Assembly: GCF_035084215.1 (NCBI RefSeq)
Contig: NW_027139217.1
Location: forward strand, 248,001-312,000
DNA: 64,000 bases
Direction: 5' to 3'
Origin: Heptranchias perlo
Lineage: Eukaryota
The position numbers were made by a program, and so were the translations under genes. Position 1 is the stretch's first letter, and every line of letters starts with the position of its first letter. Shown piece by piece: positions 1 to 64,000 of the stretch. The notes below the pieces were generated by a model. That model saw nothing but the letters and a program-made list of their open reading frames with translations, made no database searches and was not told the origin of the DNA.

Positions 1-1315
1 AACCAGCGAAAAGCATTTCCCAACCAGAATCCGCCCCCAGCAGGTTCAATAAATGAAATCCCATTGGACAATATCCCATGGGGGGAACGACCCCGGTGTT
101 GGGACGATGAGCCCTTCCCCCGAGCTCCATCGTCATCACCAGAGAGAAGGGGCCGACAGCAATTGAGAGGGAGACGACTATCTCTCCCTGCCCAGGATGT
201 CATTAAAGGGGAAGCGATCCTGGGGACAACCCTTATGAGGTTCCGAAGGGAAAGAGAGGGAGGATCAGGGATTAACAAAGAACAGCCATTACTGCCCGTG
301 TTTTCTCTTTCTCCTGATGTGTAGACTGTTAAAGACCAAGTCTCCTGGGGTGGCTGTTCAACATGAAACGATCAACACTTCTCAATATCTCCATCTGGGT
401 CTACGGATACACAACGTCCTAAGTCAGACCACTTCTGCCCACTGGGACTCTCCACAACTGATACACCCCCCAAATGTTTGGAGATCATGAAGGGTGGAGA
501 TTGTTTATAACATTGGACAATATCCGTGGGTCAGGATCACATCGATGTTGTTATTGATAATTCAGATTGGACTGGTGATTGTTGCACTCGGGATTTTTAA
601 ATCGACCTGACACAGACAGAGACAAATAGTCCCTGCTCGACAACAAGTGGAAATGGAACGGTGATATGGCTTCCACCAATGATCATCCTTTGTCTAATGT
701 CCTGTTAGATACTGCACAAGTGTGAGTATCCGTTCGTTCAGACTGTACGAGCACTCGACAATCAGCGATGATCAGATCACTCATTAAAAGTGGATCTGGA
801 TCAATCTGATCCACTCGAGGAGGGAGTGTCGAGATTGATGAATAAAAGGACTGAAGGGAAATGTTGAAGGTCAGCATGCTGGTGCATCATGGGATATTTG
901 ACCATGTTGTGCTCCACTGTGTTGAGCGAGAGACATTCTTTGTAAATTTAACAGTGACCTTGTCTTCGAGCGATCCTGTGGAAACTTAATGTGGGACAGA
1001 AACCGCCTACGAGGAAGAAGAGCTCAGACGCGTGTGGGGGAACCTCCAGAGATGGAGGGAGCTGATCACTCCTTGATTCTGGGTGCAGTACAGTCCGAAC
1101 AAAGGTTGCATGGATTTGGCCACTGAATGATATTGTAAATTTAGTTACTGAGTTTTGTTAAACTCTGTAATCGAAATTGGGATTGTGTATTGAGTATTTA
1201 TTTTTGTTTTAATAAAGTGAACAAAAAGGGAAGTACTCTTTGCGTCTGACTAATTTTATCTCTAAGTTTATCTAAGTTGAGCCGAGCCTCACAGGGTTAA
1301 TGGGAAACTCCGACA
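1..1315 (+). mobile_element. 3' end of the paralogous ERV-like element, with 3' LTR at 1053-1315
   Basis: Duplicate of 44540-45889; the LTR is 35 bp shorter through deletions. Confidence 0.85.
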
Positions 1316-1510
1316 CTGGGGATTGACTCTGGGCCCTGCCTGGTGTGTGACTCAGAGAGTTCACCCAGTCAGTAGCTGAGCCCAGGGACAATCCCCAGTC
1401 TGCAATCCCCCATCGGAGAACTCATCTCTTCCCCTTTCTGTTCCTCACTATCACCCGTCACTAATCACAAAACACACACTTACTGAGTTTTCCTCCACAT
1501 TTATTTCCAG

Positions 1511-1545
1511 ATGTTAAACTTCTCACATTTGAGGTGTTGAAATAA
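1511..1545 (+). CDS. Paralogous candidate tail exon DVKLLTFEVLK* of the preceding unit's class I gene
   Basis: Duplicate of 46085-46119 with the same acceptor. Confidence 0.3.
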
Positions 1546-2047
1546 CGTGACTCTTAAAACATACAAAGATACGAGAAATGACGGCCAGGAAAAGACACTC
1601 TGGTCCATCAAGCCTGACCCACAACTACCAAGCCTTGTGTATCACAATATATCGACTCCCCACCCCACCCGAGACCACGTGATCTCCTGGGAGAGGCAGA
1701 AAAACAGATTAAAAACACAGGCAATTTGGGGAAATAAATCGGGGAAATTCCTCTCCGACCCCCTTAGGCGATGGGAACTCGTCCAGGAGATCACTCTGGC
1801 CCTGATACGGCCCTGCATTACAAGGCGATTGCTTTTCCACTCCTACTCTGCGGACACCATCTGAACACAGGGTCTCGGAGCCTGGTCTCCGACCATCTCC
1901 AGTCCAGCTCTGTCCCAGCAGACACTCCCTGAACATTCGGCAATGATTGAAACCAGTCGGTGGATTGTCCAGAGTTCCCACTTCCGTCTCGTGACAGCTT
2001 GAACAAAAACTCTCCCAATCTTTCTTTTAAAGTGTTTACTGTAATAT

Positions 2048-2632
2048 CCTTTAATCCACCGGGATCTGATCCCATTCCATTAATTCACCGGGATCTGATC
2101 CCATTCCATTAATTCACCGGGATCTGATCCCATTCCATTAATTCACCGGGTTCTGATCCCATTCCTTTAAATCAACGGGATCTGATCCCATTCCATTAAT
2201 TCACCAGGATCTGATCCCGTTCCATTAATTCACTGGGATCTGATCCCATTCCTTTAATTCACCGGGATCTGATCCCATTCCTTTAATTTACTGGGATCTG
2301 ATCCCATTCCTTTAATTCACTGGGATCTGATCCCATTCCTTTAATTCACCGGGATCTGATCCCACTCCTTTAATTCACCGGGATCTGATCCCATTCCTTT
2401 AATTCACCGGGATCTGATCCCATTCCTTTAATTCACCGGGATCTGATCCCACTCCTTTAATTCACCGGGATCTGATCCCATTCCTTTAATTCACCGGGAT
2501 CTGATCCCATTCCTTTAATTCACCGGGATCTGATCCCATTCCATTCATTCACCGGGATCTGATCCCATTCCTTTAATTCACTGGGATCTGATCCCATTCC
2601 ATTAATTCACCGGGATCTGATCCCGTTCCTTT
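2048..2632. repeat. 29-bp minisatellite (copy B at 46620-47522 is longer)
   Basis: Unit gggatctgatcccattcctttaattcacc. Confidence 0.95.
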
Positions 2633-2901
2633 CGGCCGTGCTGTGCTCAGTGGATTGGAATTCAGTTACTGAGCCAGCAATGATTGGATGGAACATCAGC
2701 TCCTGACCATTGACGGGCCGAATGGGGCAGAATGTGAATCTAATCATCGGGATCTTTCCCATTTGTTGGGAATCTCTTCAAGCGTGAACTCCTTTTTGAG
2801 ACATTTTTTAGACCGCCTAAATTTGGAGGGCCGACCACATGTTTTTCCACAAACTCCCCGGCTCCCGTACAGTGTTCACTTTTAGCACAACCCAGAACTC
2901 A

Positions 2902-3066
2902 ATCAGGGTGGGTTACAGAGCAGGAGAGTGTGGGTCACCCACTGGTCAGGGTGGGTTACAGAGCAGGAGAGTGTGGGTCACCCACTGGTCAGGGTGGGTT
3001 CCAGAGCAGGAGAGTGTGGGTCACCCACTGGTCAGGGTGGGTTACAGAGCAGGAGAGTGCGGGTCA
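2902..3066. repeat. 43-bp tandem repeat, ~3.7 copies (copy B ~47795-47959)
   Basis: Unit ggtcagggtgggttacagagcaggagagtgtgggtcacccact. Confidence 0.9.
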
Positions 3067-3099
3067 TACTGTCTGTCTGGAGACACACTGAGACCCCCA

Positions 3100-4745
3100 C
3101 ACCCAGTCTGAAAGTGGATAATGTCCTATTGGACCGTTCACACCTCGGGCCTGTTGAAATGCCAAGTGAACCCACCCTTGTCCACTGGTCCAGAAGCCCG
3201 TTGATCCTGAATGAGGCCTCCCGCCCATATGTCGAAGCATTATCTGAAGAGCCTGATGGCTGTAGCCCAACCCCTGGAGAACACTGTGCTCCCAGGACAA
3301 CCAGCTCGAGTTCAGATGCTGTGACAAAGGAGACCTGTGGAAACATTACTGGTGGAGCGAGGCTCAACTGGAGAAATATCCCCACCAGTTGGTCCTTCTG
3401 GATGACGAAACTGACTGTGACTCTCACTCACTCTCTCAGTGTGGATGGGAGAAGACCCTGATCTCACCTATCAGTTCACCCACTGGTAGATAGTTCCTCT
3501 GGTGGTCAAACCAAACCACATTGTGAAAACACAGAGACTCAAGCTGCTAATGCCGAGGATTCTCACTACTCCTGGTCTCCTGGACCCAAGTGTCCAGAGT
3601 GATCCACGTCCACATGGAAGGACTGGAAATGGCCCACCATCCAGATCTGTGGTGGGCTATCAAGGCAGGAATCACTGCTTGGGGAGGTGGAGCTGGACAG
3701 GGTCTCGAAGGTTACTTGTTGTGATCTCCCTGTATTCCAGGTCCTAATCTGGAATGACGGGCTGGCCTGGAACAAAGGACATTGGGGTCCGGTTAAAGCC
3801 TTGAAAAGGCTGCTGTCCCTGAAGGGGTCTCTAGATGGGGGGTGGGCTAAGCTACAAAGTGAGACTGTGCCCCCTTGGGTGCCAATCTGGGAGTGCCTGA
3901 AGGTTCTGCTGGAGATGCTTGTTGCCCTGCAGCAGCTCCTCCACTTGCTCACCACAGAAGCCCTCAGCATCGAATGGCAGCTGCAGTCGTTGCTGCTCCA
4001 GTTCCTGAAGGAACCCCAAGGTGCACAGACAAGCTAATTGGCGATACAAGATCCACTGGACGATGGACAGTGCTCCTACATCGAGGGCACACACACGGCC
4101 TGCTGCTGCAGTGATGCTCTCTGAAGGTGGTCCTCACTCTGTGGCAGGGATTCCTCCCTCAACTCACCTGCGAGACATTAACCTGCTGATAATAAAGCCG
4201 GCCCCAGTGGATTTGGTTCAGGGAACACGGGATATGCCCCAAACCCTGCAGGAAGGTCCACCAGACCCACATGTCCCACCATTTGGATTGTGGTGGGTGG
4301 AACAGGACCAGTTTCCTGGGCGGTGACCTTCCTTCTGATGTTTTCAGGACTGAAGTTCACCAGGGGGATCAGTGAACTGCAAGGTGTGACGCAGGGTGGT
4401 GGAGGCACTATGGACACTGTCCACCTTGGCCATAACCGGAGGCTGCTTATCAAGTCTGCCCAAACTGCCCTGGAGATTGGTGGGACGAATCCAGCAAAGG
4501 TCGGTGCCAGAGGCCTTTACAAGACCCCCAGTAAAGACTCAACCCCCCGGGTGCAGGGACTTGTGGAACTGAGAGTTTCAGACTCTGGGTCACACTTGTG
4601 TTGAAGAGATGAAGAAGCCTCAGTGACTGGAGGTCGTGGTCTGAATCAGGCTCCCAACTGGGCTTCCGAAGGTGGGAAGCCTCCGGGCAGCTTCCTCGGG
4701 CTGAACCGACAGGGCGGCTACATCAGCACCGAGTTCATGAACACA
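3100..4745 (-). mobile_element. Probable decayed DIRS-like retrotransposon fragment
   Basis: LQLPFDAEGFCGEQVEELL (gag-like), VGHFQSF..WITLDTWVQE (RT N-terminus-like) and ELELVVL...SDNAST (RNase H-like) in DIRS order; recognised by eye only. Confidence 0.45.
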
Positions 4746-4749
4746 AGGG

Positions 4750-7700
4750 CTGATCGAGTTACACCCTGGAGACATGAGCCCTGTCACTCTGAGACTACTG
4801 AACGAGTTAAACCGTGGAGACATGAGCCCTGTCACTCTGAGAGTACTGATCGAGTTAAACCCTGGAGACATGAGCCCTGTCACTCTGAGAGTACTGATCG
4901 AGTTACACCCTGGAGACATGAGCCCTGTCACTCTGAGAGTACTGATCGAGTTAAACCCTGGAGACATGAGCCGTGTCACTCTGAGAGTACTGATCGAGTT
5001 AAACCCTGGAGACATGAGCCCTGTCACTCTGAGAGTACTGATCGAGTTAAACCCTGGAGACATGAGCCCTGTCACTCTGAGAGTACTGATCGAGTTAAAC
5101 CCTGGAGACATGAGCCGTGTCACTCTGAGAGTACTGATCGAGTTAAACCCTGGAGACATGAGCACTGTCACTCTGAGAGTACTGATCGAGTTACACCCTG
5201 GAGACATGAGCCCTGTCACTCTGAGTACTGATCGAGTTAAACCCTGGAGACATGAGCCCTGTCACTCTGAGAGTACTGATCGAGTTAAACCCTGGAGACA
5301 TGAGCCCTGTCACTCTGAGAGTACTGATCGAGTTACACCCTGGAGACATGAACCGTGTCACTCTGAGAGTACTGATCGAGTTAAACCGTGGAGACATGAG
5401 CCCTGTCACTCTGAGAGTACTGATCGAGTTAAACCGTGGAGACATGAGCCCTGTCACTCTGAGAGTACTGATCGAGTTAAACCCTGGAGACATGAGCCCT
5501 GTCACTCTGAGAGTACTGATCGAGTTAAACCCTGGAGACATGAGCCGTGTCACTCTGAGAGTACTGATCGAGTTAAACCCTGGAGACATGAGCCCTGTCA
5601 CTCTGAGAGTACTGATCGAGTTAAACCCTGGAGACATGAGCCCTGTCACTCTGAGAGTACTGATCGAGTTAAACCCTGGAGACATGAGCCCTGTCACTCT
5701 GAGTACTGATCGAGTTAAACCCTGGAGACATGAGCCCTGTCACTCTGAGAGTACTGATCGAGTTAAACCGTGGAGACATGAGCCCTGTCACTCTGAGAGT
5801 ACTGATCGAGTTAAACCCTGGAGACATGAGCTCTGTCACTCAGAGTACTGATCGAGTTAAACCGTGGAGACATGAGCCCTGTCACTCTGAGAGTACTGAT
5901 CGAGTTAAACCCTGGAGACATGAGACCTGTCACTCTGAGAGTACTGATCGAGTTAAACCCTCGAGACATGAGCCCTGTCACTCTGAGAGTACTGATTGAG
6001 TTAAACCCTGGAGACATGAGCCGTGTCACTCTGAGAGTACTGATCGAGTTAAACCCTGGAGACATGAGCCCTGTCACTCAGAGTACTGATCGAGTTAAAC
6101 CCTGGAGAGATGAGCCCTGTCACTCTGAGTACTGATCGAGTTAAACCCTGGAGACATGAGCCCCGTCACTCTGAGAGTACTGATCGAGTTAAACCCTGGA
6201 GACATGAGCCCTGTCACTCTGAGTACTGATCGAGTTAAACCCTGGAGACATGAGCCCTGTCACTCTGAGAGTACTGATCGAGTTAAACCCTGGAGACATG
6301 AGCCCTGTCACTCTGAGAGTACAGATCGAGTTAAACCCTGGAGACATGAGCCCTGTCACTCTGAGAGTACTGATCGAGTTAAACCCTGGAGACATGAGCC
6401 CTGTCACTCTGAGAGTACTGATCGAGTTAAACCCTGGAGACATGAGCCCTGTCACTCTGAGAGTACTGATCGAGTTACACCCTGGAGACATGAGCCCTGT
6501 CACTCTGAGTACTGATCGAGTTAAACCCTCGAGACATGAGCCCTGTCACTCTGAGAGTACTGATCGAGTTAAACCCTGGAGACATGAGTCGTGTCACTCA
6601 GAGTACTGATCGAGTTAAACCCTGGAGACATGAGCCCTGTAACTCTGAGAGTACTGATCGAGTTAAACCCTGGAGACATGAGCCCTGTCACTCTGAGAGT
6701 ACTGATCGAGTTAAACCCTGGAGACATGAGCCCTGTCACTCTGGGAGTACTGATCGAGTTAAACCGTGGAGACATGAGCCCTGTCACTCTGAGAGTACTG
6801 ATCGAGTTAAACCCTGGAGACATGAGCACTGTCACTCTGAGAGTACTGATCGAGTTACACCCTGGAGACATGAACCGTGTCACTCTGAGAGTACTGATCG
6901 AGTTAAACCGTGGAGACATGAGCCCTGTCACTCTGAGAGTACTGATCGAGTTAAACCGTGGAGACATGAGCCCTGTCACTCCGAGAGTACTGATTGAGTT
7001 AAACCCTGGAGACATGAGCCCTGTCACTCTGAGAGTACTGATCGAGTTAAACCCTGGAGACATGAGCCCTGTCACACTGAGTACTGATCGAGTTAAACCC
7101 TCGAGACATGAGCCCTGTCACTCTGAGAGTACTGATCGAGTTAAACCCTGGAGACATGAGCCGTGTCACTCTGAGAGTACTGATCGAGTTACACCCTGGA
7201 GACATGAGCCGTGTCACTCTGAGAGTACTGATCGAGTTAAACCGTGGAGACATGAGCCCTGTCACTCTGAGAGTACTGATCGAGTTAAACCCTGGAGACA
7301 TGAGCCCTGTCACTCTGAGAGTACTGATCGAGTTAAACCCTGGAGACATGAGCCCTGTCACTCTGAGAGTACTGATCGAGTTAAACCCTGGAGACATGAG
7401 CCCTGTCACTCTGAGAGTACTGATCGAGTTAAACCCTGGAGACATGAGCCCTGTCACTCTGAGAGTACTGATCGAGTTAAACCCTGGAGACATGAGCCCT
7501 GTCACTCTGAGAGTACTGATCGAGTTAAACCCGAGAGACATGAGCCTTGTCACTCTGAGAGTACTGATCGAGTTAAACCCTGGAGACATGAGCCCTGTCA
7601 CTCTGAGAGTACTGATCGAGTTAAACCCTGGAGACATGAGCCCTGTCACTCTGAGAGTACTGATCGAGTTAAACCCTGGAGACATGAGCCCTGTCACTCT

Positions 7701-8347
7701 GATTACTGATCGAGTTAAACCCGAGAGACATGAGCCCTGTCACTCTGAGAGTACTGATCGAGTTACACCCTGGAGACATGAGCCCTGTCACTCTGAGAGT
7801 ACTGATCGAGTTAAACCCTGGAGACATGAGCCCTGTCACTCTGAGAGTACTGATCGAGTTAAACCCTGGAGACATGAGCCCTGTCACTCTGAGAGTACTG
7901 ATCGAGTTAAACCCTGGAGACATGAGCCCTGTCACTCTGAGAGGACTGATCGAGTTAAACCCTGGAGACATGAGCCCTGTCACTCTGAGAGTACTGATCG
8001 AGTTAAACCGTGGAGACATGAGCCCTGTCACTCTGAGTACTGATCGAGTTAAACCGTGGAGACATGAGCCCTGTCACTCTGAGAGTACTGATTGAGTTAA
8101 ACCCTGGAGACATGAGCCCTGTCACTCTGAGAGTACTGATCGAGTTAAACCCTGGAGACATGAGCCCTGTCACTCTGAGAGTACTGATCGAGTTAAACCC
8201 TGGAGACATGAGCCCTGTCACTCTGAGAGTACTGATCGAGTTACACCCTGGAGACATGAGCCCTGTCACTCTGAGTACTGATTGAGTTACACCCTGGAGA
8301 CATGAGCCCTGTCACTCTGAGTACTGATTGAGTTAAACCCTGGAGAC
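4750..8347. repeat. 48/46-bp minisatellite, ~75 units
   Basis: Unit gatcgagttaaaccctggagacatgagccctgtcactctgagagtact. Confidence 0.97.
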
Positions 8348-8574
8348 CCTGTAAACTGTAATGACCACACTTGGTGCAGCCGAGATCAGCACAGAGACTG
8401 AACTTGGAGTGTTGCTGGTCTGTTGAGCTCAGTCACACGCTGCATTGTGCACTTACCGACTGAAGGACTGTGTGAGCTCGCAGAACAGGTACCCAGCAGA
8501 CCTTTGGAGAAATTGCTCAGATGCCCTGTCACTCTGAGTCATTCTGTTTTTTGGTCAGCCGGGTGTCTGACCGA

Positions 8575-11500
8575 ATTTATTTAATGATGTAGCTTCCACA
8601 GCTTCCTGGGGCAGCAAATTCCACAGACCTACTACCCTCTGAGTGAAGAAGTTTCTCCTTATCTCAGTTTTGAAAGAACAACCCCTTGTTCTAAGATTAT
8701 GCCCCTAGTTCTAGTTTCACCCATCCTTGGGAACATCCTTACCACATCCACCCGATCAAGCCCCTTCACAATCTTATATGTTTCAATAAGATCGCCTCTC
8801 AATCTTCTGAACTCCAATAAGTGGAGTCCCAATCTACTCAACCTCTCCTCATATGTCCGCCCCCTCATCCCAGGGATTAACCGAGTGAACCTTCTTTGTA
8901 CTGCCTCGAGAGCAAGTATGTCTTTTCTTAAGTATGGAGACCAAAACTGTATGCAGTATTCCAGGTGCGGTCTCACCAATACCTTATATAACTGCAGCAA
9001 TACCTCCCTGTTTCTTTATTCTATCCCCCAAGCAATAAAAGCCAACATTCCGTTGGCCTTCTTGATCACCTGCTGCACCTGCATACTAACTTTTTGATTT
9101 TCTTGCACTAAGACCCCCAGATCCCTTTGTACTGCAGTACTTTCCAGTTTCTCGCCATTAAGATAATAACTTGCTCTCTGATTTTTCCTGCCAAAGTGCA
9201 TAACCTCACATTTTCCAATATTATATTGCATCTGCCAAATCTCCGCCCACTCACCCAGCCTGTCTATATCCCCCTGTAGGTTTTTTATGTCCTCCTCACT
9301 CTCCACTTTCCCTCCCATCTTTGTATCATCTGCAAACTTTGATATGTTACACTCGGTCACCTCCTCCAAATCGTTAATATAGATTGTAAAGAGTTGGGGA
9401 CCCAGCACCGACCCCTGCGGAACACCACTGGCTACTGGTTACCAGTCCGAGGATGAACCATTTATCCCAACTCTCTGCTTCCTGTTAGATAACCAATCCT
9501 CCACCCATGCCAGAATATTACCCCCAATCCAGTGATTCTTTATCTTGAGCAATAATCTTTTATGTGGCACCTTGTCAAATGCCTTCTGGAAGTCTAAATG
9601 CACTACGTCCACTGGTTCCCCTTTATCCACCCTGTACGTTATGTCCTCAAAGAACTCAAGCAAATTTGTCAGACATGACTTCCCCTTCGTAAAGCCATGC
9701 TGACTTTGTCCTATTAAATTATGTTTATCCAAATGTTCCACTACTGTCTCCTTAATAATAGATTCCAAAATTTTACCCACCACAGATGTTCGGCTAACTG
9801 GTCTGTAATTTCCAGCCTTCTGCCCACTCCCATTTTAAATAAGGGTGTTACATTGGCAGTTTTCCAATCTGCCGGGACCTTTGCCGAGTCCAGAGAATTT
9901 TGGAAAATTATTACCAAAGCATCCACAATCCCTACTGCCACTTCCCTCAAGACCCTAGGATGTAAGCCATCAGGTCCAGGGGATTTATCCGCCTTGAGTC
10001 CCATTATTTTACTGAGTACCAATTCCTTAGTGATTTTAATCGTATTTAGCTCCTCCCCCCCTAGTGCCCCCTGTTTGTCCAATGTTGGGATATTCTTAGT
10101 GTCCTCTACCGTAAAGACTGAAACAAAATATTTGTTCAGCATTTTTGCCATCTCCATGTTTCCCACCATTAATTTCCCGGTCTCATCCTCTAAGGGACCT
10201 ATGTTTGCCTTTGCCACCCTTTTTCTTTTTATATAACTATAGAAACTCTTGCTATCTGTTTTTATATTTTTTGCTAATTTATTTTCATAATCTATCTTCC
10301 CTTTCTTAATCAATCCTTTAGTTACTTTTTGCTGTCTTTTGAAGACTTCCCAATCTTCTATCCTCCCACTAAGTTTGGCTACCTTATATGTCCTTGTTTT
10401 TAGTCGGATACTATCCTTAATTTCTTTACTTAGCCACGGATGGCTGTCATTTCTTTTACACCCTTTTTCCTCAGTGGAATATATTCTTTTTGAAAGTTGT
10501 AAAATAACTCCTGAAATGAACACCACTGCTCATGTACCGTCTTACCCTTTAATCTATTTTCCCAGTCCACTTTAATCAATTCCGCTCTCATACCATCACA
10601 GTCTCCTTTATTCAAGCTCAGTACGCTTGTTTGAGAACCAACCTTCTCACCATCTAATTGGATATGGAATGTAACCATGTTATGGTCACTCATTCCAAGG
10701 GGATCCTTAACTAGGACATTATTAATTAATCCTGGCTCATTACACAGGACCAGGTCCAAGGTTGCTTGCCCCCTTGTAGGATCAGTTACATACTGCTCAA
10801 GAAATCCATCCCTAATACACTCTTCCTCAAGGCTGCCCTGCCCAATTTGATTTGTCCAGTTAATATGATAGTTAAAATCCCCCATAATTATAGCTGTTCC
10901 CTTATTACATGCCCCGACTATTTCCTGATTAATACTTCTTCCAGCAGAGTTGCAGCTATTAGGAGGCCTATATACTACGCCCACTAGTGTTTTTTCCCCC
11001 TTATTATTCCTTATCTCTGCCCAAACTGTTTCATTATCCTGATCCTTTGTCCCAATATCATTTCTCTGTGTTACAGTGATTCATTCCTTTATTAACAGAC
11101 CCACCCCACCTCCCCTTCCTTCCTGCCTGTCCTTCCTGATTGTTAAATACCCTGGCATATTTAATTCCCAGTCATTGTCACCCTGCAGCCATGTTTCTGT
11201 AATGGCCACAAGATCATACCCATACGTAGTTATTTGTGCCGTTAACTCGTCCATTTTGTTACGAATGCTACGTGCATTCAGATAAAGAACTTTCAAATAT
11301 GTTTTGTGACACTTAGTTCCTGCTTTTTCCTTTTTTAACACTTTACCTTTTACTCCATACCTTCTGTCCCTTCCTGACACGCTTTCCTCTGTCTCCCTGC
11401 TCAGGTTCCCAACCCCCTGCCACAGCTTTGATGCTGGGTTAATCGCCTTACGCCTTCTAGTTTTTATTTTATCTGTCGTGCCTAATGTACACTTTCTTTC

Positions 11501-13170
11501 CGCTGCTCTACGCTTTTCCCTCTCACTTGTACTTGAACAACTGTTTGTACTATCTGTATTGTAGATTTCCCCTGGGTCTTCCCCTCTCTTGCTGCTCTCA
11601 ACTTTATTCCCTTCTGACTCCCCACTCAGGTTCCCATCCCCCTGCCATTCTAGTTTAAACCTTCCTCAACAGCACTAGCAAACACCCCCGCGAGGACATT
11701 GGTCCCGGTCCTGCTCGGGTGTAATCCGTCACGCTTGTACAGGTCCCACCTTCCCCAGAACCGGTCCCAATGTCCCAGGAATCTAAATCCCTCCCTCCTA
11801 CACCATCCCTGCAGCCACGCATTCATCCAGTCTATTCTCCTGTTCCTATACTCACTAGCACGTGGCACTGGTAGTAATCCTGAGATCACTACCTTTGAAG
11901 TCCTGCTTTTTAATTTCTCTCCTAACTCCTTAAATTCACCTTGCAGGACCTCATCCCTTTTTTTACCTGTGTCGTTGGTACCAATATGGACAATGACTAC
12001 TGGCTGTTCACCCTCCCCCTCCAGAATGCCCTGCAGCCGCTCTGTGACATCCTTGACCCTAGCACCAGGGAGGCACATACCATCCTGGAGTCACGTTTGC
12101 GGCCGCAGAAACACCTATCTGTTCCCCTTACAATCGAATCCCCTATCACTATAGCCCTGCCACTCTTCTTCCTCCCCTCCTGTGGAGCAGAGCCACCCGT
12201 GGTGCCCCGAACCTGGCTCTTGCTGCATTCCCCTGATAAACCATCTCCCCCAACAGTATCTAAAGCAGAATATCTGTTTGAGAGGGAGATGGCCCCAGGG
12301 GACTCCTGCTCTACCTGCCTCGTCCTTTTACTCTGCCTGGCGGTCACCCATTTCCTTTCTGCCTGTGTAATCTTTACCTGCGGTGTGACCACCTCACTGA
12401 ACGTGCTATCCACGATAGTCTCAGCATCGCAGATGCTCCACAGTGAATCCACCCGCAGCTCCAGCTCCGAAATGCGGTTAGCCAGTAGTTGCAGCTGGAC
12501 ACACTTCCTGCACACATGGTCGCCAGGGACACTGGTAGTGTCCATGACTTCCCACATAGTGCAGGAGGAGCATATCACGGGTGCGAGCTGTGCTGCCATG
12601 ACTTGCCTTAGACTCTCAGACTCTCCTCCCGCTCTCGGTCTCTCCTTTTATACTGTGCTCACCTCTCGGACTCTCCTGCTTCACTGGTGACGTCGCACAG
12701 TCGTTGTCTCTTTTTGCAGGTCTGCTGCTGCTTTTATTCCCCAATCTCAGTCTTCTACTCTCAGGCCCACTGCCGCTCTGGGGAAAAAGTTAGGAAAAGC
12801 AAGGCAGAGCAGCACCTCCTTCCACCAACTCCCTCACGTATCAAACTCTCCGTTCACACTGTGTATCCGCACACCGTGCTGTTCGCACTGACAGGCCCCT
12901 GTATTTCTACAGTTTGTGACTCAGATGAGTCAGGCCTGCCCCACCCTCAGGTACCAGTTTAATCTAGCCAACCAATTAACTTGCTACAGCAGCTCTCTCT
13001 GCTGAAGCCTGACAGAAACTTAAAAATTTAAACTTTAAAATTGAACTTAAACAGTTAATAGCAATTGAACTTAAAGAGTTGAAAGCAATATGCACTAGAT
13101 TTTAAAGAGATTAACCCTTAAACTCCCACACGTACCAAACTCTCCATTCACACTGTGTTGTCCGCACATT
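8575..13170 (-). mobile_element. Near-full-length CR1-clade LINE, frameshifted
   Basis: ORF1 with CxxC/CxxC, coiled coil and SGNH esterase motifs (GDSIVRG, HIGTND, DGLH). ORF2 with APE endonuclease (YLNARSI, ITETW, GDFN, SDH) and RT (LDFQKAFDKV, KFADD, LVRPHLEYC). The 3' tail is missing. Confidence 0.95.
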
Positions 13171-15099: not shown

Positions 15100-15503
15100 C
15101 TGGCTGGCTGTCTGAGTCTGTGTCTGGCTGGTCTGTCTCTGTCTGGTCTCTCTGTCTGTCTGTCTGAGTCTGGCTGTCTGAGTCTGTGTCTGTCTCTGTC
15201 TGTCTGTGTCTGTGTCTGTCTGGTCTCTCTGTCTGTCTGTCTGAGTCTGTGTCTGTCTGGTCTCTGTCTGTCTGTGTCTGTGTCTGTCTGGTCTCTCTGT
15301 CTGTCTGTCTGAGTCTGAGTCTGTGTCTGTCTGGTCTCTCTGTCTGTCTGTCTGAGTCTGTGTCTGTCTGGTCTCTGTCTGTCTGTGTCTGTGTCTGTCT
15401 GGTCTCTCTGTCTGTCTGTCTGAGTCTGAGTCTGTGTCTGTCTGGTCTCTCTCTCTGTCTCTCTGTCTGTCTGTCTCTGTCTGGTCTCTCTGTCTGTCTG
15501 TCT
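15100..15503. repeat. Compound TCTG/TCTGAG microsatellite (copy B ~60680-60976)
   Basis: Direct inspection. Confidence 0.9.
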
Positions 15504-15524
15504 GCTCCAGCTTCCCCCCCCCCC

Positions 15525-46084: not shown

Positions 46085-46119
46085 ATGTTAAACTTCTCAC
46101 ATTTGAGGCGTTGAAATAA
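46085..46119 (+). CDS. Candidate cytoplasmic-tail exon DVKLLTFEALK*
   Basis: Pyrimidine-rich acceptor ttttcctccacatttatttccag|; phase-1 compatible with the TM donor at 37247; lies just beyond the ERV. No homology check possible. Confidence 0.35.
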
Positions 46120-49675: not shown

Positions 49676-49679
49676 GGGC

Positions 49680-52600: not shown

Positions 52601-53731
52601 ATGAGCCCTGTCACTCTGAGAGTACTGATCGAGTTAAACCCTGGAGACATGAGCCCTGTCACTCTGAGAGTATTGATCGAGTTACACCCTGGAGACATGA
52701 GCTCTGTCACTCTGAGTACTGATCGAGTTAAACCGTGGAGACATGAGCCCTGTCACTCTGAGAGTACTGATCGAGTTAAACCCTGGAGACATGAGCCCTG
52801 TCACTCTGAGTACTGATCGAGTTAAACCCTGGAGACATGAGCCCTGTCACTCTGAGAGTACTGATCGAGTTAAACCCTGGAGACATGAGCCCTGTCACTC
52901 TGAGAGTACTGATCGAGTTAAACCCTGGAGACATGAGCCCTGTCACTCTGAGAGTACTGATCGAGTTACACCCTGGAGACATGAGCCCTGTCACTCGGAG
53001 TACTGATCGAGTTACACCCTGGAGACATGAGCCCTGTCACTCTGAGTACTGATTGAGTTAAACCCTGGAGACATGAGCCCTGTCACTCTGAGAGTACTGA
53101 TCGAGTTAAACCCTGGAGACATGAGCCCTCTCACTCTGAGAGTACTGATCGAGTTAAACCCTGGAGACATGAGCCCTGTCACTCTGAGCACTGATCGAGT
53201 TAAACCCTGGAGACATGAGCCCTGTCACTCTGAGAGTACTGATCGAGTTAAACCCTGGAGACATGAGCCCTGTCACTCTGAGTACTGATCGAGTTAAACC
53301 CTGGAGACATGAGCCCTGTCACTCTGAGAGTACTGATTGAGTTCAACCCTGGAGACATGAGCCCTGTCACTCTGAGAGTACTGATCGAGTTAAACCCTGG
53401 AGACATGAGCCCTGTCATTCTGAGTACTGATCGAGTTAAACCCTGGAGACATGAGCCCTGTCACTCTGAGAGTACTGATCGAGTTAAACCCTGGATACAT
53501 GAGCCTTGTCACTCTGAGTACTGATCGAGTTAAACCCTGGAGACATGAGCCCTGTCACTCTGAGAGTACTGATCGAGTTAAACCCTGGAGACATGAGACC
53601 TGTCACCCTGAGTACTGATTGAGTTAAACCCTGGAGACATGAGCCCTGTCACTCTGAGAGTACTGATCGAGTTAAACCCTGGAGACATGAGTTCTGTCAC
53701 TCTGAGTACTGATCGAGTTAAACCCTGGAGA
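49680..53731. repeat. 48/46-bp minisatellite copy B, ~85 units
   Basis: Same unit, different variant order. Confidence 0.97.
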
Positions 53732-53959
53732 CCCTGTAAACTGTAATGACCACACTTGGTGCAGCCGAGATCAGCACAGAGACTGAACTTGGAGTGTTGC
53801 TCGTCTGTTCAGCTCAGTCACACCCTGCATTGTGCACTTACCAACTGAAGGACTGTGTGAGCTCGCAGACCAGGTACCCAGCAGACCTTTGGAGAAATTG
53901 CTCAGCTGCCCTGTCACTCTGAGTCATTCTGGTTTTTGGTCAGCCGGGTGTCTGACCGA

Positions 53960-56900
53960 ATTTATTTAATGATGTAGCTTCCACAGCCTCCTGGGGCAGC
54001 AAATTCCACAGACCTACTACCCTCTGAGTGAAGAAGTTTCTCCTTATCTCAGTTTTGAAAGAACAACCCCTTATTCTAAGATTATGCCCCTAGTTCTAGT
54101 TTCACCCATCCTTGGGAACATCCTTACCACATCCACCCGATCAAGCCCCTTCACAATCTTATATGTTTCAATAAGATCGCCTCTCAATCTTCTGAACTCC
54201 AATAAGTGGAGTCCCAATCTACTCAACCTCTCCTCATATGTCCGCCCCCTCATCCCAGGGATTAACCGAGTGAACCTTCTTTGTACTGCCTCGAGAGCAA
54301 GTATGTCTTTTCTTAAGTATGGAGACCAAAACTGTATGCAGTATTCCAGGTGCGGTCTCACCAATACCTTATATAACTGCAGCAATACCTCCCTGTTTCT
54401 TTATTCTATCCCCCTAGCAATAAAAGCCAACATTCCGTTGGCCTTCTTGATCACCTGCTGCACCTGCATACTAACTTTTTGATTTTCTTGCACTAAGACC
54501 CCCAGATCCCTTTGTACTGCAGTACTTTCCAGTTTCTCGCCATTAAGATAATAACTTGCTCTCTGATTTTTACTGCCAAAGTGCATAACCTCACATTTTC
54601 CAATATTGTATTGCATCTGCCAAATCTCTGCCCACTCACCCAGCCTGTCTATATCCCCCTGTAGGTTTTTTATGTCCTCCTCACTCTCCACTTTCCCTCC
54701 CATCTTTGTATCATCTGCAAACTTTGATATGTTACACTCGGTCACCTCCTCCAAATCGTTAATATAGATTGTAAAGAGTTGGGGACCCAGCACCGACCCC
54801 TGCGGAACACCACTGGCTACTGGTTACCAGTCCGAGGATGAACCATTTATCCCAACTCTCTGCTTCCTGTTAGATAACCAATCCTCCACCCATGCCAGAA
54901 TATTACCCCCAATCCAGTGATTCTTTATCTTGAGCAATAATCTTTTATGTGGCACCTTGTCGAATGCCTTCTGGAAGTCTAAATACACTACGTCCACTGG
55001 TTCCCCTTTATCCACCCTGTACGTTATGTCCTCAAAAAACTCAAGCAAATTTGTCAGACATGGCTTCCTCTTCGTAAAGCCATGTTGACTTTGTCCAATT
55101 AAATTATGTTTATCCAAATGTTCCACTACTGTCTCCTTAATAATAGATTCCAAAATTTTACCCACCACAGATGTTCGGCTAACTGGTCTGTAATTTCCAG
55201 CCTTCTGCCCACTACCATTTTAAATAAGGGTGTTACATTAGCAGTTTTCCAATCTGCCGGGACCTTTGCCGAGTCCAGAGAATTTTGGAAAATTATTACC
55301 AAAGCATTCACAATCCCTACTGCCACTTTCCTCAAGACCCTCGGATGTAAGCCATCAGGTCCAGGGAATTTATCCGCCTTGAGTCCCATTATTTTACTGA
55401 GTACCAATTCCTTAGTGATTTTAATCGTATTTAGCTCCTCCCCCCCTAGTGCCCCCTGTTTGTCCAATGTTGGGATATTCTTAGTGTCCTCTACCGTAAA
55501 GACTGAAACAAAATATTTGTTCAGCATTTTTGCCATCTCCATGTTTCCCACCATTAATTTCCCGGTCTCATCCTCTAAGGGACCTATGTTTGCCTTAGCC
55601 ACCCTTTTTCTTTTTATATAACTATAGAAACTCTTGCTATCTGTTTTTATATTTTTTGCTAATTTATTTTCATAATCTATCTTCCCTTTCTTAATCAATC
55701 CTTTAGTTACTTTTTGCTGTCTTTTGAAGACTTCCCAATCTTCTATCCTCCCACTAAGTTTGGCTACCTTATATGTCCTTGTTTTTAGTCGGATACTATC
55801 CTTAATTTCTTTACTTAGCCACGGATGGCTGTCATTTCTTTTACACCCTTTTTCCTCAGTGGAATATATTCTTTTTGAAAGTTGTAAAATAACTCCTGAA
55901 ATGAACACCACTGCTCATGTACCGTCTTACCCTTTAATCTATTTTCCCAGTCCACTTTAATCAATTCCGCTCTCATACCATCACAGTCTCCTTTATTCAA
56001 GCTCAGTACGCTTGTTTGAGAACCAACCTTCTCACCATCTAATTGGATATGGAATGTAACCATGTTATGGTCACTCATTCCAAGGGGATCCTTAACTAGG
56101 ACATTATTAATTAATCCTGGCTCATTACACAGGACCAGGTCCAAGGTTGCTTGCCCCCTTGTAGGATCAGTTACATACTGCTCAAGAAATCCATCCCTAA
56201 TACACTCTTCCTCAAGGCTGCCCTGCCCAATTTGATTTGTCCAGTTAATATGATAGTTAAAATCCCCCATAATTATAGCTGTTCCCTTATTACATGCCCT
56301 GACTATTTCCTGATTAATACTTCTTCCAGCAGAGTTGCAACTATTAGGAGGCCTATATACTACGCCCACTAGTGTTTTTTCCCCCTTATTATTCCTTATC
56401 TCCACCCAAACTGTTTCATTATCCTGATCCTTTGTCCCAATATCATTTCTCTGTGTTACAGTGATTCCTTCCTTTATTAACAGACCCACCCCACCTCCCC
56501 TTCCTTCCTGCCTGTCCTTCCTGATTGTTAAATACCCTGGCATATTTAATTCCCAGTCATTGTCACCCTGCAGCCATGTTTCTGTAATGGCCACAAGATC
56601 ATACCCATACGTAGCTATTTGTGCCGTTAACTCGTCCATTTTGTTACGAATGCTACGTGCATTCAGATAAAGAACTTTCAAATATGTTTTGTGACACTTA
56701 GTTCCTGCTTTTTCCTTTTTTAACACTTTACCTTTTACTCCATACCTTCTGTCCCTTCCTGACACGCTTTCCTCTGTCTCCCTGCTCAGGTTCCCAACCC
56801 CCTGCCACAGCTTTGATGCTGGGTTAATCGCCTTACGCCTTCTAGTTTTTATTTTATCTGTCGTGCCTAATGTACACTTTCTTTCCGCTGCTCTACGCTT

Positions 56901-58555
56901 TTCCCTCTCACTTGTACTTGAACAACTGTTTGTACTATCTGTATTGTAGATTTCCCCTGGGTCTTCCCCTCTCTTGCTGCTCTCAACTTTATTCCCTTCT
57001 GACTCCCCACTCAGGTTCCCATCCCCCTGCCATTCTAGTTTAAACCTTCCTCAACAGCACTAGCAAACACCCCCGCGAGGACATTGGTCCCGGTCCTGCT
57101 CGGGTGTAACCCGTCACGCTTGTACAGGTCCCACCTTCCCCAGAACCGGTCCCAATGTCCCAGGAATCTAAATCCCTCCCTCCTACACCATCCCTGCAGC
57201 CACGCATTCATCCAGTCTATTCTCCTGTTCCTATACTCACTAGCACGTGGCACTGGTAGTAATCCTGAGATCACTACCTTTGAAGTCCTGCTTTTTAATT
57301 TATCTCCTAACTCCTTAAATTCACCTTGCAGGACCTCATCCCTTTTTTTACCTATGTCGTTGGTACCAATATGGACCACGACTACTGGCTGTTCACCCTC
57401 CCCCTCCAGAATGCCCTGCAGCCGCTCTGTGACATCCTTGACCCTAGCACCAGGGAGGCACATACCATCCTGGAGTCACGTTTGCGGCCGCAGAAACACC
57501 TATCTGTTCCCCTTACAATCGAATCCCCTATCACTATAGCCCTGCCACTCTTCTTCCTCCCCTCCTGTGGAGCAGAGCCACCCGTGGTGCCCCGAACCTG
57601 GCTCTTGCTGCATTCCCCTGATAAGCCATCTCCCCCAACAGTATCTAAAGCAGAATATCTGTTTGAGAGGGAGATGGCCCCAGGGGACTCCTGCTCTACC
57701 TGCCTCGTCCTTTTACTCTGCCTGGCGGTCACCCATTTCCTTTCTGCCTGTGTAATCTTTACCTGCGGTGTGACCACCTCACTGAACGTGCTATCCATGA
57801 TAGTCTCAGCATCGCGGATGCTCCACAGTGAATCCACCCGCAGCTCCAGCTCCGAAATGCGGTTAGCCAGTAGTTGCAGCTGGACACACTTCCTGCACAC
57901 ATGGTCGCCAGGGACACTGGTAGTGTCCATGACTTCCCACATAGTGCAGGAGGAGCATATCACGGGTGCGAGCTGTGCTGCCATGACTTGCCTTAGACTC
58001 TCAGACTCTCCTCCCGCTCTCGGTCTCTCCTTTTATACTGTGCTCACCTCTCGGACTCTCCTGCTTCACTGGTGACGTCGCACAGTCGTTGTCTCTTTTT
58101 GCAGGTCTGCTGCTGCTTTTATTCCCCAATCTCAGTCTTCTACTCTCAGGCCCACTGCCGCTCTGGGGAAAAAGTTAGGAAAAGCAAGGCAGAGCAGCAC
58201 CTCCTTCCCCCAACTCCCTCACGTACCAAACTCTCCGTTCACACTGTGTATCCGCACACCGTGCTGTTCGCACTGACAGGCCCCTGTATTTCTACAGTTT
58301 GTGACTCAGATGAGTCAGGCCTGCCCCACCCTCAGGTACCAGTTTAATCTAGCCAACCAATTAACTTGCTACAGCAGCTCTCTCTGCTGAAGCCTGACAG
58401 AAACTTAAAAATTTAAACTTTAAAATTGAACTTAAACAGTTAATAGCAATTGAACTTAAAGAGTTGAAAGCAATATGCACTAGATTTTAAAGAGATTAAC
58501 CCTTAAACTCCCACACGTACCAAACTCTCCATTCACACTGTGTTGTCCGCACATT
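53960..58555 (-). mobile_element. Duplicate of the CR1 LINE
   Basis: Same ORF fragments and frameshifts; endonuclease region open (55815-56765). Confidence 0.95.
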
Positions 58556-61009
58556 CATTAATTGATAATAGATTCATCAATTGATATCAGATTCATCAAT
58601 TGATATCAGTTTCATTAATTGAGATCAGTTTCATTAATTGATCAGTTTCATTAATTGAGATCAGATTCATTAATTGATCAGTTTCATTAATTGAGATCAG
58701 TTTCATTAATTGAGATCAGATTCATTAATTGATACCAGATTCATTAATTGATCAGTTTCATTAATTGATACCAGATTCATTAATTGATCAGTTTCATTAA
58801 TTGATATCAGATTCATCAATTGATATCAGTTTCATTAATTGAGATCAGTTTCATTAATTGATCAGTTTCATTAATTGAGATCAGATTCATTAATTGAGAT
58901 CAGTTTCATTAATTGATATCAGTTTCATTAATTGATATCAGTTTCATTAATTGAGATCAGATTCATTAATTGAGATCAGTTTCATTAATTGAGATCAGAT
59001 TCATTAATTGATATCAGTTTCATTTATTGATATCAGTTTCATTAATTGAGATCAGTTTCATTAATTGATCAGATTCATTAATTGATATCAGATTCATTAA
59101 TTGAGATCAGTTTCATTAATTGATCAGTTTCATTAATTGAGATCAGATTCATTAATTGATCAGTTTCATTAATTGAGATCAGATTCATTAATTGAGATCA
59201 GTTTCATTAATTGATACCAGATTCATTAATTGAGATCAGTTTCATTAATTGATACCAGATTCATTAATTGATCAGTTTCATTAATTGAGATCAGATTCAT
59301 TAATTGATATCAGTTTCATTAATTGATACCAGATTCATTAATTGATCAGTTTCATTAATTGAGATCAGATTCATTAATTGATATCAGTTTCATTAATTGA
59401 TACCAGATTCATTAATTGATCAGTTTCATTAATTGATACCAGATTCATTAATTGATCAGTTTCATTAATTGATCTCAGATTCATTAATTGATACCAGATT
59501 CATTAATTGATCAGATTCATTAATTGACCAGATTCATTAATTGATCAGATTCATTAATTGATACCAGTTTCATTAATTGATACCAGATTCATTAATTGAT
59601 ATCAGTTTCATTAATTGATATCAGATTCATTAATTGATACCAGATTCATTAAGGGGACAGGACTCCTTTTCCCAGCCTCTCTCCTGAAGTTTTTTCCCAG
59701 TCGAGAGGGGCAGGTGACCAAAGTAACGGGATTCGGTGAATCGTCTGTCCCGCTCCTTGGTGACCTGGTGTTAGAATTGGGCGCACTCACCGCCCGGTCC
59801 GATTCTCACTCAGGGAATTAACTTTACAAAACTGTCGTCAACCTATTTAATGAATGACATGAAACTAATTAAAGTCTATGAAAAGATGAACCATTTTTGG
59901 AATCCCCATGAATCAACCTGTAACTTTGTGTTGCGGACTGAAGGAAACGCTGACCTGGTTACCGAGTGAGGGGAAAATGTAAGAATGTTTGTGTTTTGTT
60001 TGTGAGACACTTTCCCGACTGTATTTAGGAGTCGGGTTAAAAATGCTGAGTCTTTCTGACCCCAGGGATGTGTTAAATGAAGAGGAACAGCCGATTGCCG
60101 CCCGCTTTCCAGAGGAGAAGGAACTCTCCCCGGAGCAAGTTGCAACATAATGAAAGATTTGCACCCGAATCAAATCAAGGAGCTTTGAGGAGTGAGGCCA
60201 GAGTGAGAATCGTTCGAGTCCGGAAAGCTCAGCATCTTCAGTGTTTGTAGAAATGGTCAGTGTTTCTCAGCCCAGGAATCTGGGGCAACCTTTGTTCAAT
60301 TGAACAGGAGCGGGGCTTTGGATCAAACAAGAGTTTAGCAGCAAACAGTGTTCTTACTGGGAGTGGTGGGACTGAGAAATCCTTAAACAGCGGCAACCCT
60401 GGAAAGCAGAGCTCCAAATCTCGGCTTCAATAAAGTGCTGAACTGAGAGAGCGGAGGGCAGATGGGCATTGGATTCAATCCCAACTCACTGGATCGAAAC
60501 AAGGCAGTGAGTGTGGGCGGAGTGGGATTCCGGGACCTGTGTCTGAGCTGCACCTCGATCCGTCCCGTTCAGTAAAGAGAGAGCGGCAGACGGCTCCCAG
60601 ACACGGCCCAGACCGGGAGCGGGAGCGGGAGCGGGAGCGGCTGCATTGGAGAGCGGGGATCCTGCGCTGGGGTTGCGGCTGGCTGGCTGTCTGAGTCTGG
60701 CTGTCTGTCTGTCTCTGTCTCTGTCTGGTCTCTCTGTCTGTCTGTCTGAGTCTGGCTGTCTGAGTCTGTGTCTGTCTCTGTCTGTCTGTGTCTGTCTGGT
60801 CTCTCTGTCTGTCTGTCTGAGTCTGTGTCTGTCTGGTCTCTGTCTGTCTGTGTCTGTGTCTGTCTGGTCTCTCTGTCTGTCTGTCTGAGTCTGAGTCTGT
60901 GTCTGTCTGGTCTCTCTGTCTGTCTGTCTGAGTCTGAGTCTGTCTGTGTCTGTCTGGTCTCTCTGTCTGTCTGTCTGCTGCAGCTTCCCCCCGTCCCCGC
61001 CTCCACCCC

Positions 61010-64000
61010 CCCCCGGGGAGACCCGGCCAATGCCCAAGTGATGATCGCCCTGGTGGAGCGACAACTCGCTGACGAGCTTTGGTCAGATCTCCGACGTTCC
61101 CCAGGCTGTGTAACCCTGGGCGACCCCCGAGTCCGAAGAACGGGATCGAATTTCCAGCCGATAATAAAATCAACCAGGGAGCGGAGGGAGGATAAAGCAA
61201 GAGGCCGGAGGGAGGAGGAGCCCAGAGCTTTAGGAGGGGACCAGACCCTATTCCCTCTGCTTCTCCACCCCCAGTGATGGAGCCAGGACCTGGGACAGAG
61301 GGAAGATCCTCCGGGCTGCCTCCCAGGAGAGCACGGGCTCAATTTCGAGGGACTCAATGTGGATCTTTCAGACTTCCAACAGGAGCAGATAAATGATGCA
61401 GTCCTCCAAATCATAAAACAAGAGGGAGTAGTGAGAAGTGGGCACCCCACTGAGGGTAAAACAAAAGGTGCGGGGCCTTATTATCCGGTAAAGAATGACC
61501 TTCTATACAGGGAGAGTGCGGGGCAGCAGCAGCAAGTTGACCAGTTGCTGGTGCCACGGACACAGAGGCAGATAGTCCTTGACTTGGCCACAAGCAACTA
61601 TTCAGAGCTCACCTGGGGACAGAGCAAACTCGGGAGGGGCTGTTGAGGTGGGTCTTGTGGCCAGGGGTGGATGAAGTGATCCGTGGGTTCTGTCCCTCCT
61701 GTCCACAGTGTCAGCTGTGTGGGCCCAGGCCTCACTATCACGCTCCATTAATCCCTCTCCCCGGAATTGAGGGGCCTTTCGAAAGGATCGGGATGGACCA
61801 GTGGGCCCGCTGGAGGGGTCAGCGCGAGGTCACCAATATATGTTGGGAGTTGTTGCCTGTTCCAGGCCCGATCCTGAGGCGATTCCACCGAGGATCACGG
61901 CCCCTAAAACCATAGCGGGCGGGTCAGTGAGAGCGTTCCCCGGGGTAGGGATCCCAAAGGACCAGGGACTCCCTCTGTGTCCACACTGATGAAGGGCCTC
62001 TGTCCCCTCCTCCATATTAAAAGTCTGAGGCCCTCCGTGGATCAACCCTCAAACCGAGGGCCGTGTGGAGAGGGTCAGTGGGACCCGCGAGTATGTTCAA
62101 AAAGGCCCGGCATAAAGATGGGTCAAATCGGGATCCTTCACTGCCCCGTCTCAGGCCTGCAGTCGGGGAGGGGCCTCGGTCAGGGAGGGAGGGGCCTCGG
62201 TCAGGGAGGGAGGGGCCTCGGTCGGGGAGGGAGGGGCCTCGGTCAGGGAGGGAGGGGCCTCGGTCAGGGTGGGAGGGGCCTCGGTCAGGGAGGGAGGGGC
62301 CTCGGTCAGGGAGGGAGGGGCCTCGGTCAGGGAGGGAGGGGCCTCGGTCAGGGAGGGAGGGGCCTCGGTCGGGGAGGGGCCTCGGGGGAGGGAGGGGCCT
62401 CGGTCGGGGAGGGAGGGGCCTCGGTCGGGGAGGGAGGGGCCTCGGTCGGGGAGGGCGGGGCCTCGGTCGGGGAGGGAGGGGCCTCGGTCGGGGAGGGAGG
62501 GGCCTCGGTCGGGGAGGGGCCTCGGGGGAGGGAGGGGCCTCGGTCGGGGAGGGAGGGGCCTCGGTCGGGGAGGGAGGGGCCTCGGTCGGGGAGGGCGGGG
62601 CCTCGGTCGGGGAGGGAGGGGCCTCGGTCGGGGAGGGAGGGGCTTCGGTCAGGGAGGGAGGGGCCTCGGTCGGTCGGGGAGGGCGGAGCCTCGGTCGGGG
62701 AGGGAGGGGCCTCGGTCAGGGAGGGAGGGGCCTCGGTCGGTCGGGGAGGGAGGGGCCTCGGTCAGGGAGGGAGGGGCCTCGGTCGGGGAGGGAGGGGCCT
62801 CGGTCGGTCGGGGAGGGAGGGGACTCGGTCGGGGAGGGAGGGGCCTCGGTCGGGGAGGGAGGGGCCTCGGGCGGGGAGGGAGGGGCCTCGGTCGGTCGGG
62901 GAGGGAGGGGCCTCGGGCGGGGAGGGAGGGGCCTCGGTCGGGGAGGGAGGGGCCTCGGGCGGGGAGGGAGGGGCCTCGGGCGGGGAGGGAGGGGCCTCGG
63001 TCAGGGAGGGAGGGGCCTCGGTCGGGGAGGGAGGGGCCTCGGTCGGGGAGGGAGGGGCCTCGGTCGGGGAGGGAGGGGCCTCGGTCGGTCGGGGAGGGAG
63101 GGGCCTCGGGCGGGGAGGGAGGGGCCTCGGTCCTCCAATAATATTATTGAGCACAGAGTGAAGATGGGGCGCGGATTGAGGCGGTTCCCCCCATAGTGAG
63201 GGCTCATTTAGAGAGGGTGCAGGAAGAGCAGAGAGCCCAGTGTAAGAGAGGCTGCAGTCAGGAGGTTCCGACCAGGAGACCGAGTTACGGTCCTCGTTCC
63301 CACACCTGAAACAAGCTCTTTGCAGGGTGGCAGGGACTTTAGGAGGTTCTAGAGGCTGTGGGCCCAGTGAACTATAAGGTCAGGCAACCTCAGAGAAGGA
63401 AGCCTGACCAGAAAGACCATGTGCCCCTCCTGAAGCCATGGAGAGAGAGAGGCCCTCGCAGTGATGGAGAAAGCACTAGGGGGGCCCTGGCTCCAAGGTA
63501 CAAAGCCCAGTTCACCTCTCTAGTGAGCTGCCTGAGGATCAGTGCAGGCAGGCTCAGCACCTGGGAGATGGAACCTGCAATGTATTCACATCTGGGCCTG
63601 GGAGGACGGGGGCCATCTGCTCTCACCTGGTGACACCACCAGGAGTGACAATAAAGGTCAGACCGGACCGAATCCCAGAAGCCAAACGGAGGGAGGTTCG
63701 CCAGGAGATTCCGAGGGTGTTGATCTTCGGGGTGATTGAAGAATCACGGTGAACGGAGCAGCCCCATTGTGTTGGTTCTGAATCCCGATGGGAATTGGCG
63801 ATTCTGAAATGACTTTCGGAAACTGAATGAGGATTGAAATCCGATGCTTTCCCGATGCCCCGGGGGGATGAGTTGATTGATAGATTGGCGAAGGCCCCTT
63901 TGATCTTACCCCCTTCGATCTGACCAAGGGGTGCTGGCAGATCCCTTTAACAGAGGCTGCAAAAGGAAACCCGTGTTTCGGGGTTCCCGAGGGGCTCTCC
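61010..64000 (+). mobile_element. Duplicate Gmr1-like element, cut by the window end
   Basis: Near-identical to 15525-18957. Confidence 0.88.

Follow-up and report, generated by a model that had tools for sequence, protein, structure and literature searches.

The window, by which we mean the whole 64,000-nucleotide stretch of DNA analyzed here, carries a 44.5-kb tandem unit with a tail-less MHC class I gene, and transcripts from this gene family splice to a site within an LTR element. We consider it rather probable that the intact sister genes make a tail-less, nonclassical and probably hybrid protein, and that the copy in the window is itself dead.

Self-BLAST and block alignment of the whole window reveal that positions 1 to 18957 (copy A, which holds part of the upstream and of the central unit) are colinear with positions 44540 to 64000 (copy B), both on the forward strand, with a period of 44,539 nt at the left end. 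From there the offset between the copies rises to 45,573 and then drops to 45,043; length differences in five minisatellites between copy A and copy B (586/905, 3598/4054, 912/1100, 405/283, and 1421/967 nt) account for nearly all of this drift. Minisatellites occupy 18,604 of the 44,539 nt of the period (42%). Outside the minisatellites, the seven unique blocks differ by 98 substitutions over 11,824 aligned bases (0.83%), 54 of them transitions and 44 transversions, which bears out the original prediction of a colinear recurrence with few substitutions. The seven blocks are unevenly diverged (chi-square p 0.017), with 0.98% in the left four and 0.39% in the right three on a split that was picked post hoc, and this unevenness would fit patchwise conversion or crossover. 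The predicted youth of the duplication holds in a relative sense only and was overstated, because at the epaulette shark mutation rate of 7 x 10^-10 per generation given in one genome study (PMC10587355), a divergence of 0.83% would take about 6 million generations to build up if the copies were free of conversion.

The copies were also expected to share transposon insertions and lesions, and they do. Both carry a LINE, a Gypsy-type relic and the terminal part of an LTR element, with nearly identical stops. The decayed LINE (approximately 8550 to 12700, reverse strand) matches GDSL esterase, endonuclease and reverse transcriptase families of Pfam, and its stops in the three frames coincide at 225 positions, out of 230 in copy A or 234 in copy B. 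The decayed Gypsy-type relic (approximately 15500 to 19900, forward strand) retains integrase pieces (Pfam Integrase_H2C2 and Integrase_p58_C) and is interrupted by a 21-mer minisatellite. Rfam gave no match over positions 1 to 46000, and no zinc-finger gene was detected in the 44.5-kb unit.

The period holds one MHC class I gene on the forward strand, with five exons bounded by AG/GT ends and matched by Pfam MHC_I and C1-set, and tblastn found no second set of class I exons in the 64-kb window. Exon 1 (22602 to 22650) encodes the leader and is 16/16 identical to Heptranchias perlo models. Exon 2 (27718 to 27978; exon mapping and Pfam) encodes alpha-1, which is UBA-like in the domain trees and has N at the Y59 position; exon 3 (35038 to 35310; exon mapping and Pfam) encodes alpha-2. 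Exon 4 (36068 to 36343) encodes alpha-3 and is identical at 91 to 92 of 92 positions to the array and classical-type models of H. perlo, and exon 5 (37121 to 37246), placed by exon mapping and read contigs, encodes the connecting peptide and the transmembrane segment and is the last host exon of the unit. Upstream, a pattern scan run without a chance control marked a putative class I promoter at 21000 to 21200 (forward strand), with ATTGG at 21034 and 21138, CCAAT at 21162 and an ISRE-like CTTTCATT at 21127, all patterns that we presume to be typical of class I promoters; a 1.3-kb minisatellite stands between this region and the ATG. The gene shows the leader, alpha-1, alpha-2, alpha-3 and transmembrane exons of a classical-type gene, together with the class I fold, which was confirmed by an AlphaFold model of the array protein P0034 (pLDDT 70.6; top Foldseek match 6lup_A). 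As to the eight residues that we take to anchor the peptide ends (Y7, Y59, R84, T143, K146, W147, Y159, and Y171, in the numbering we assume), seven are kept in P0034, which has N59, six in the window copy, which has N59 and a stop at 147, and all eight in P0014 and 6LUP.

The window gene has its closest relatives among the RefSeq models of a sevengill shark, Heptranchias perlo. The nearest protein cluster has six members, and a single H. perlo contig of 612,036 nt carries them all under consecutive accessions, which adjoin, by number, a classical-type model. They represent five gene models if two isoforms are counted once; four of the five differ from the window gene at 3 to 7 residues and the fifth at 38, and none is identical to it. 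A true tandem class I array is likely, in which the window would take its place on the 612-kb contig by virtue of these identities. Tandem class I genes under birth-and-death evolution are textbook knowledge, and the six-protein contig, the sisters only a few residues apart and the stop codon in the window copy support the expanding array of this kind that had been proposed. The proposal that another gene ends upstream is likewise implied by a copy of the LTR-element acceptor at 325, to which nothing else in the window compares as evidence of such a gene end, and the ATG of the next unit is extrapolated to about 67,645. Contig depths in the DNA run X1 were 12.2 for array-type exon 3, 5.7 for classical-type exon 3 and 25 to 33 for exons 4 and 5, values that are not interpretable as copy number.

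The major departure from a classical gene lies at the 3' end. The classical-type H. perlo models and the array model P0034 have a 25-residue cytoplasmic tail with a conserved tyrosine. Among the six array proteins, one (P0034) has this tail and one ends after alpha-2, and the remaining four stop 2 to 3 residues past the transmembrane exon with KRGRK or KRDC (P0031 ends KKRDC). A search of the window for the start of exon 6 gave no match at 3 mismatches, with a best score of 18/26 against 16 to 17 for 10 shuffled queries, and tblastn of six tails against the window gave no match below E 0.6. The tail with its conserved tyrosine, a feature of classical class Ia, is absent from the unit.

In intron 5 the unit has a decayed LTR element instead (39146 to 45867, forward strand), recognized from Pfam and from the comparison of its two LTRs (39146 to 39421 and 45592 to 45867), which are 88 to 89% alike. 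Pfam detected a zinc knuckle, a tether domain of the RNase H-like type and, as a weak match, a second RNase H, an arrangement that we take to be retrovirus-like, and neither protease nor reverse transcriptase in the searched pieces of the element. Since its LTRs are 11 to 12% apart, either the element long predates the duplication or two copies recombined to form it. At the TG..CA ends, direct reading of the sequence showed no target-site duplication; together with the diverged LTRs, this suggests that the duplication junction may fall inside the element. A 4-nt candidate target-site duplication, one among 75 boundary-length combinations, was rejected for its position away from the TG..CA ends. 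A 16-nt match of intron 5 to the DNA past the 3' LTR, first spotted by eye, was set aside after 2 of 200 shuffles reached it. Inside the element, 7,617 nt past exon 5, the acceptor at 44864 opens a captured terminal exon (44864 to 45867, forward strand, with a provisional 3' end) that adds D-C-stop to exon 5, matches RefSeq P0031 and is backed by read contigs; AATAAA at 45380 and 45750 are candidate polyadenylation signals. Only one pyrimidine-rich acceptor per unit yields D-C-stop, namely 44864 and its counterpart at 325. By sequence match, the latter and the 3' LTR at 1053 to 1293 would form the terminal exon of the upstream gene (325 to 1293, forward strand).

Use of this acceptor was observed in read contigs. 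We compared all contigs of four runs, out of 22 listed, with positions 34895 to 37374. X5 and X6 were taken as RNA solely from their spliced joints and exon-bound depth, and they stem from one sample, possibly the source of the assembly, and count as one observation. One contig in each of them runs on from 37246 with a sequence that occurs at 325 and 44864 and nowhere else. Exon 5 is joined in RNA to the acceptor of the LTR element, giving KKRDC-stop, in a junction that is not assignable to a particular copy; a host donor pairs with an acceptor that the element supplies, as in a retroelement splice trap. X5 and X6 also contain GT..AG joints between exons 3 and 4 and exons 4 and 5, plus an array-type exon 2-3 junction, and six X5 contigs run into the normal exon 6 of tailed genes. 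The array-type contigs have depths of 1,204 and 2,744 against 2-5 x 10^5 in the exon bins, depth being a poor measure here. The X5 and X6 contigs that read through into intron 5 have 37336 A>C, which is missing from the X1 contig, so that they are no evidence of the KRGRK form for the array copies. Run X9, from organism B, spans exon 4 to intron 5 and is uninformative on array-type exons.

It may be asked whether such transcripts matter. The array could be real and its tail-less units mere by-products, with the tailed sister alone functional, the other genes decaying duplicates and the splicing into the LTR leakage. We regard this as a real possibility, if a somewhat unlikely one. The stop in one copy, the model that ends after alpha-2, the shallow array-type RNA contigs and the near-identity of the copies, which carries no sign of selection yet, are all in keeping with it, but three tail-less gene models are open through the transmembrane segment, one of them the model 38 residues from the window gene, and a stop right after the captured acceptor would in principle escape nonsense decay. 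Short-tailed class I proteins do exist, HLA-G being an example (PMC4950430).

The separate domains of the gene give different affiliations. Domain trees were computed from 36 rows, hand-picked from 57 aligned, with constraint groups named after a first tree. In the alpha-1 tree, the array groups with 11 UBA-like rows at a support of 99/98, including AAC60347, to which the supplement of PMC10751288 gives the UBA label, and forcing the array alpha-1 together with the H. perlo classical-type alpha-1 was rejected (p-AU 0.022). The alpha-2 tree places the array among H. perlo classical-type rows (95/85), with five of seven diagnostic sites classical, and a UBA grouping was not rejected (p-AU 0.37). 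Alpha-3 is classical-type at 37/37 diagnostic sites and UBA-type at 0/37, and its tree agrees. Moreover, intron 2 contains, from 570 nt into the intron, a relic of another exon-2 3' end with its donor site (28546 to 28633, forward strand); it matches classical-type alpha-1 ends at 11, 11, and 10 of 13 positions, against 7/13 for the array, and may be the scar of an alpha-1 graft. These comparisons partly support a hybrid of a UBA-like alpha-1 and a classical-type alpha-3, which we consider fairly likely. Alternatively, no hybrid would have formed, and alpha-1 could represent an old UAA lineage, allelic or paralogous, whose likeness to UBA stems from shared ancestry or from convergence after relaxed selection. 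The mean alpha-1 identity of the array is indeed 0.67 with H. perlo classical-type rows and lower, at 0.63, with UBA rows, the array alpha-1 is sister to the UBA rows and not nested among them, and P0034 is UBA-type at 4, classical at 2 and neither at 5 of the 11 diagnostic alpha-1 sites; UBA is also said, in PMC12562908, to descend from UAA. Given the strongly supported UBA grouping, the rejection of the classical one, the 6 of 11 UBA-type sites in P0002 and the relic exon end, this alternative appears possible and somewhat doubtful.

Beyond the probable hybrid, one could go further and propose that a hexanchiform shark made a new nonclassical family, with a UBA alpha-1 grafted on a classical gene, a retrovirus-like splice trap replacing the tail and amplification under selection, as the shark counterpart of the short-tailed HLA-G. 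We offer this extended reading tentatively and find it unlikely as it stands.

The frame of the window copy has a single stop, the TGA at 35202 to 35204 at the conserved W147, and the copy is likely a pseudogene; the unit does contain one class I gene, as in the original prediction, but this gene is not a complete one, having this stop codon and no tail exons. None of the X1, X5 and X6 contigs carries the stop allele, and all those that cover 35204 read G there (14.1/14.1 in X1, full depth in X5 and X6), as would be expected if the TGA were an assembly error and the window copy intact. We consider such an error improbable: the absence of the allele is weak evidence, because X1 also drops the window letters at 36109 and 37198, which are present as a minority in X5 (depths of about 1,265 and 1,716) and are encoded by RefSeq model P0035. 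The window letters at 34950 and 36669 are missing from the X1 contigs too, and these two positions have no matching control of this kind. In addition, the window gene equals none of the six listed proteins, as expected for a copy annotated as a pseudogene.

A mistake on the scale of the whole repeat would be a join of haplotypes. The 42% minisatellite content invites mis-joins, and a divergence of 0.83% is within the reach of MHC haplotypes. However, the five array models and the distinct window copy make six sequences. Provided that the window comes from the same animal, a diploid can hold that many only with at least three loci, and two haplotypes then cannot account for the whole set. That the assembler joined two haplotypes of one locus in tandem is very improbable, since the divergence is also four times the mean diversity of 0.002 given for the epaulette shark (PMC10587355) and the join would need to delete the tail exons as well, yet the tail-less form is found in RefSeq and in RNA.

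Returning to the reading we prefer, a tandem array whose intact sisters make a tail-less and probably hybrid protein, its history may have run as follows. A classical-type gene would have gained a UBA-like alpha-1 exon through recombination or conversion, leaving the relic in intron 2. The sequence itself shows a retrovirus-like element in intron 5, which lies in the sense direction and offers a strong acceptor. Unequal crossing-over, perhaps through two LTR copies, would then have copied a segment that starts upstream of the promoter, extends into intron 5 and stops short of exon 6, leaving most units without tail exons, with one listed sister retaining them. The RNA contigs, which lead from exon 5 to the element's acceptor and KKRDC-stop, suggest how units without tail exons could finish their transcripts. 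Intact tail-less copies are predicted to be membrane-anchored heavy chains with seven (or six) of the eight anchor residues and no tail motifs; the protein would reach the surface without the conserved tail tyrosine and serines and would be internalized more slowly, with slower turnover, and the loss of Y59 would relax binding of the peptide N terminus. The nonsense codon in one assembled copy may represent the death part of a birth-and-death process.

Class I arrays that evolve by birth-and-death are known, as is LTR exonization, and the array resembles these in its tandem paralogues with a likely pseudogene and in the transposon sequence in the 3' part of its transcript. In exon layout and fold it is like elasmobranch classical Ia (UAA; nurse shark 6LUP) and the MHC-Ia-like genes, and in alpha-2, alpha-3 and transmembrane sequence the window gene is like the H. 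perlo classical-type models. Unlike UAA, the array is multicopy in 44.5-kb units, has lost Y59, has an alpha-1 outside the classical group and lacks tail exons; its multicopy state speaks against classical Ia, defined as a single gene beside the TAP and PSMB genes. It is like UBA (AAC60347) in the grouping of alpha-1, in forming a multicopy tandem cluster and in the loss of Y59, and unlike UBA in that alpha-2 prefers, and alpha-3 clearly follows, classical-type H. perlo genes and T143 is kept; the listed UBA rows mostly have a tail, whereas the array is mostly tail-less. PMC10751288 reports a single Ia gene with Ia-like neighbors in varying number near it and multicopy UBA and UEA clusters, with the UBA cluster flanked by c4 and rxrb. 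In mammals, the class I tail is described as dispensable for surface delivery and as controlling endocytosis and cross-presentation, and the HLA-G tail is only six residues long and exon-7-less splice forms exist (PMC4950430). Like HLA-G and the exon-7-less forms, the array proteins have few residues inside the membrane and have lost the conserved tail tyrosine and serines; unlike HLA-G, the duplicated unit has no tail exons, a retroelement acceptor supplies the end and the gene was then amplified. The nurse shark UAA-NC1 is reported to have a retrotransposon in its 3'UTR (PMC1513397), whereas the element in the array replaces coding tail exons, and this state is common to the amplified units.

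A listing-level literature search returned no report of this array, of a class I gene with a tail captured from an LTR element or of a hybrid between UBA and UAA; shark papers in J Immunol (2020 and 2021) and a thesis may bear on novelty. The KRGRK ends of the RefSeq models and the copy counts in this region call for long-read caution. The origin of nonclassical from classical class I genes is usually inferred from old and diverged products, and in this single locus, from a shark that branched off early, the steps can still be read: near-identical units, tailed and tail-less sisters, an acceptor used in RNA, a probable alpha-1 graft with its relic and a copy with a stop. The tailed and tail-less sisters, about five residues apart outside the tail, form a natural pair for testing the role of the ancient tail.

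A promoter-like, GC-rich stretch with a CGGGAG repeat occurs in both copies of the tandem unit (14900-15100 and 60480-60690), and the divergence between these copies is only 0.2%. In the Gypsy-type relic at 15500-19900, which we take to be Gmr1-like, reverse-transcriptase-like sequence seems, from an order read by eye, to lie 3' of the integrase pieces. The LTR element in intron 5 (39146-45867) has the same nine bases directly 3' of each LTR, and no target-site duplication was seen at its TG..CA ends. Recombination between two copies may have produced this element.

Intron 2 contains a relic of the 3' end of a classical-type exon 2 together with its own splice donor (28546-28633). Among the RefSeq models of H. 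perlo, a classical-type class I model on another contig of 333,102 nt (P0037, P0038, P0040) also lacks the normal 25-residue cytoplasmic tail; it has three alternative ends, and six residues of one of them match a LINE relic that lies in the window. The classical-type alpha-1/alpha-2 domains of H. perlo are accompanied by two deeply different alpha-3 types (P0018 versus P0014, P0036, P0037 and P0039), both of which are also present in other sharks.

Three minisatellites adjoin exon ends (22651-23217, 26602-27708 and 35302-35739) and repeat splice-site-like sequence within them, namely the donor after exons 1 and 3 and the pyrimidine tract before exon 2. A 43-mer minisatellite of 31 copies, 98% pure (21201-22536), lies between the CCAAT/ISRE-like motifs and exon 1, and its length could affect expression.
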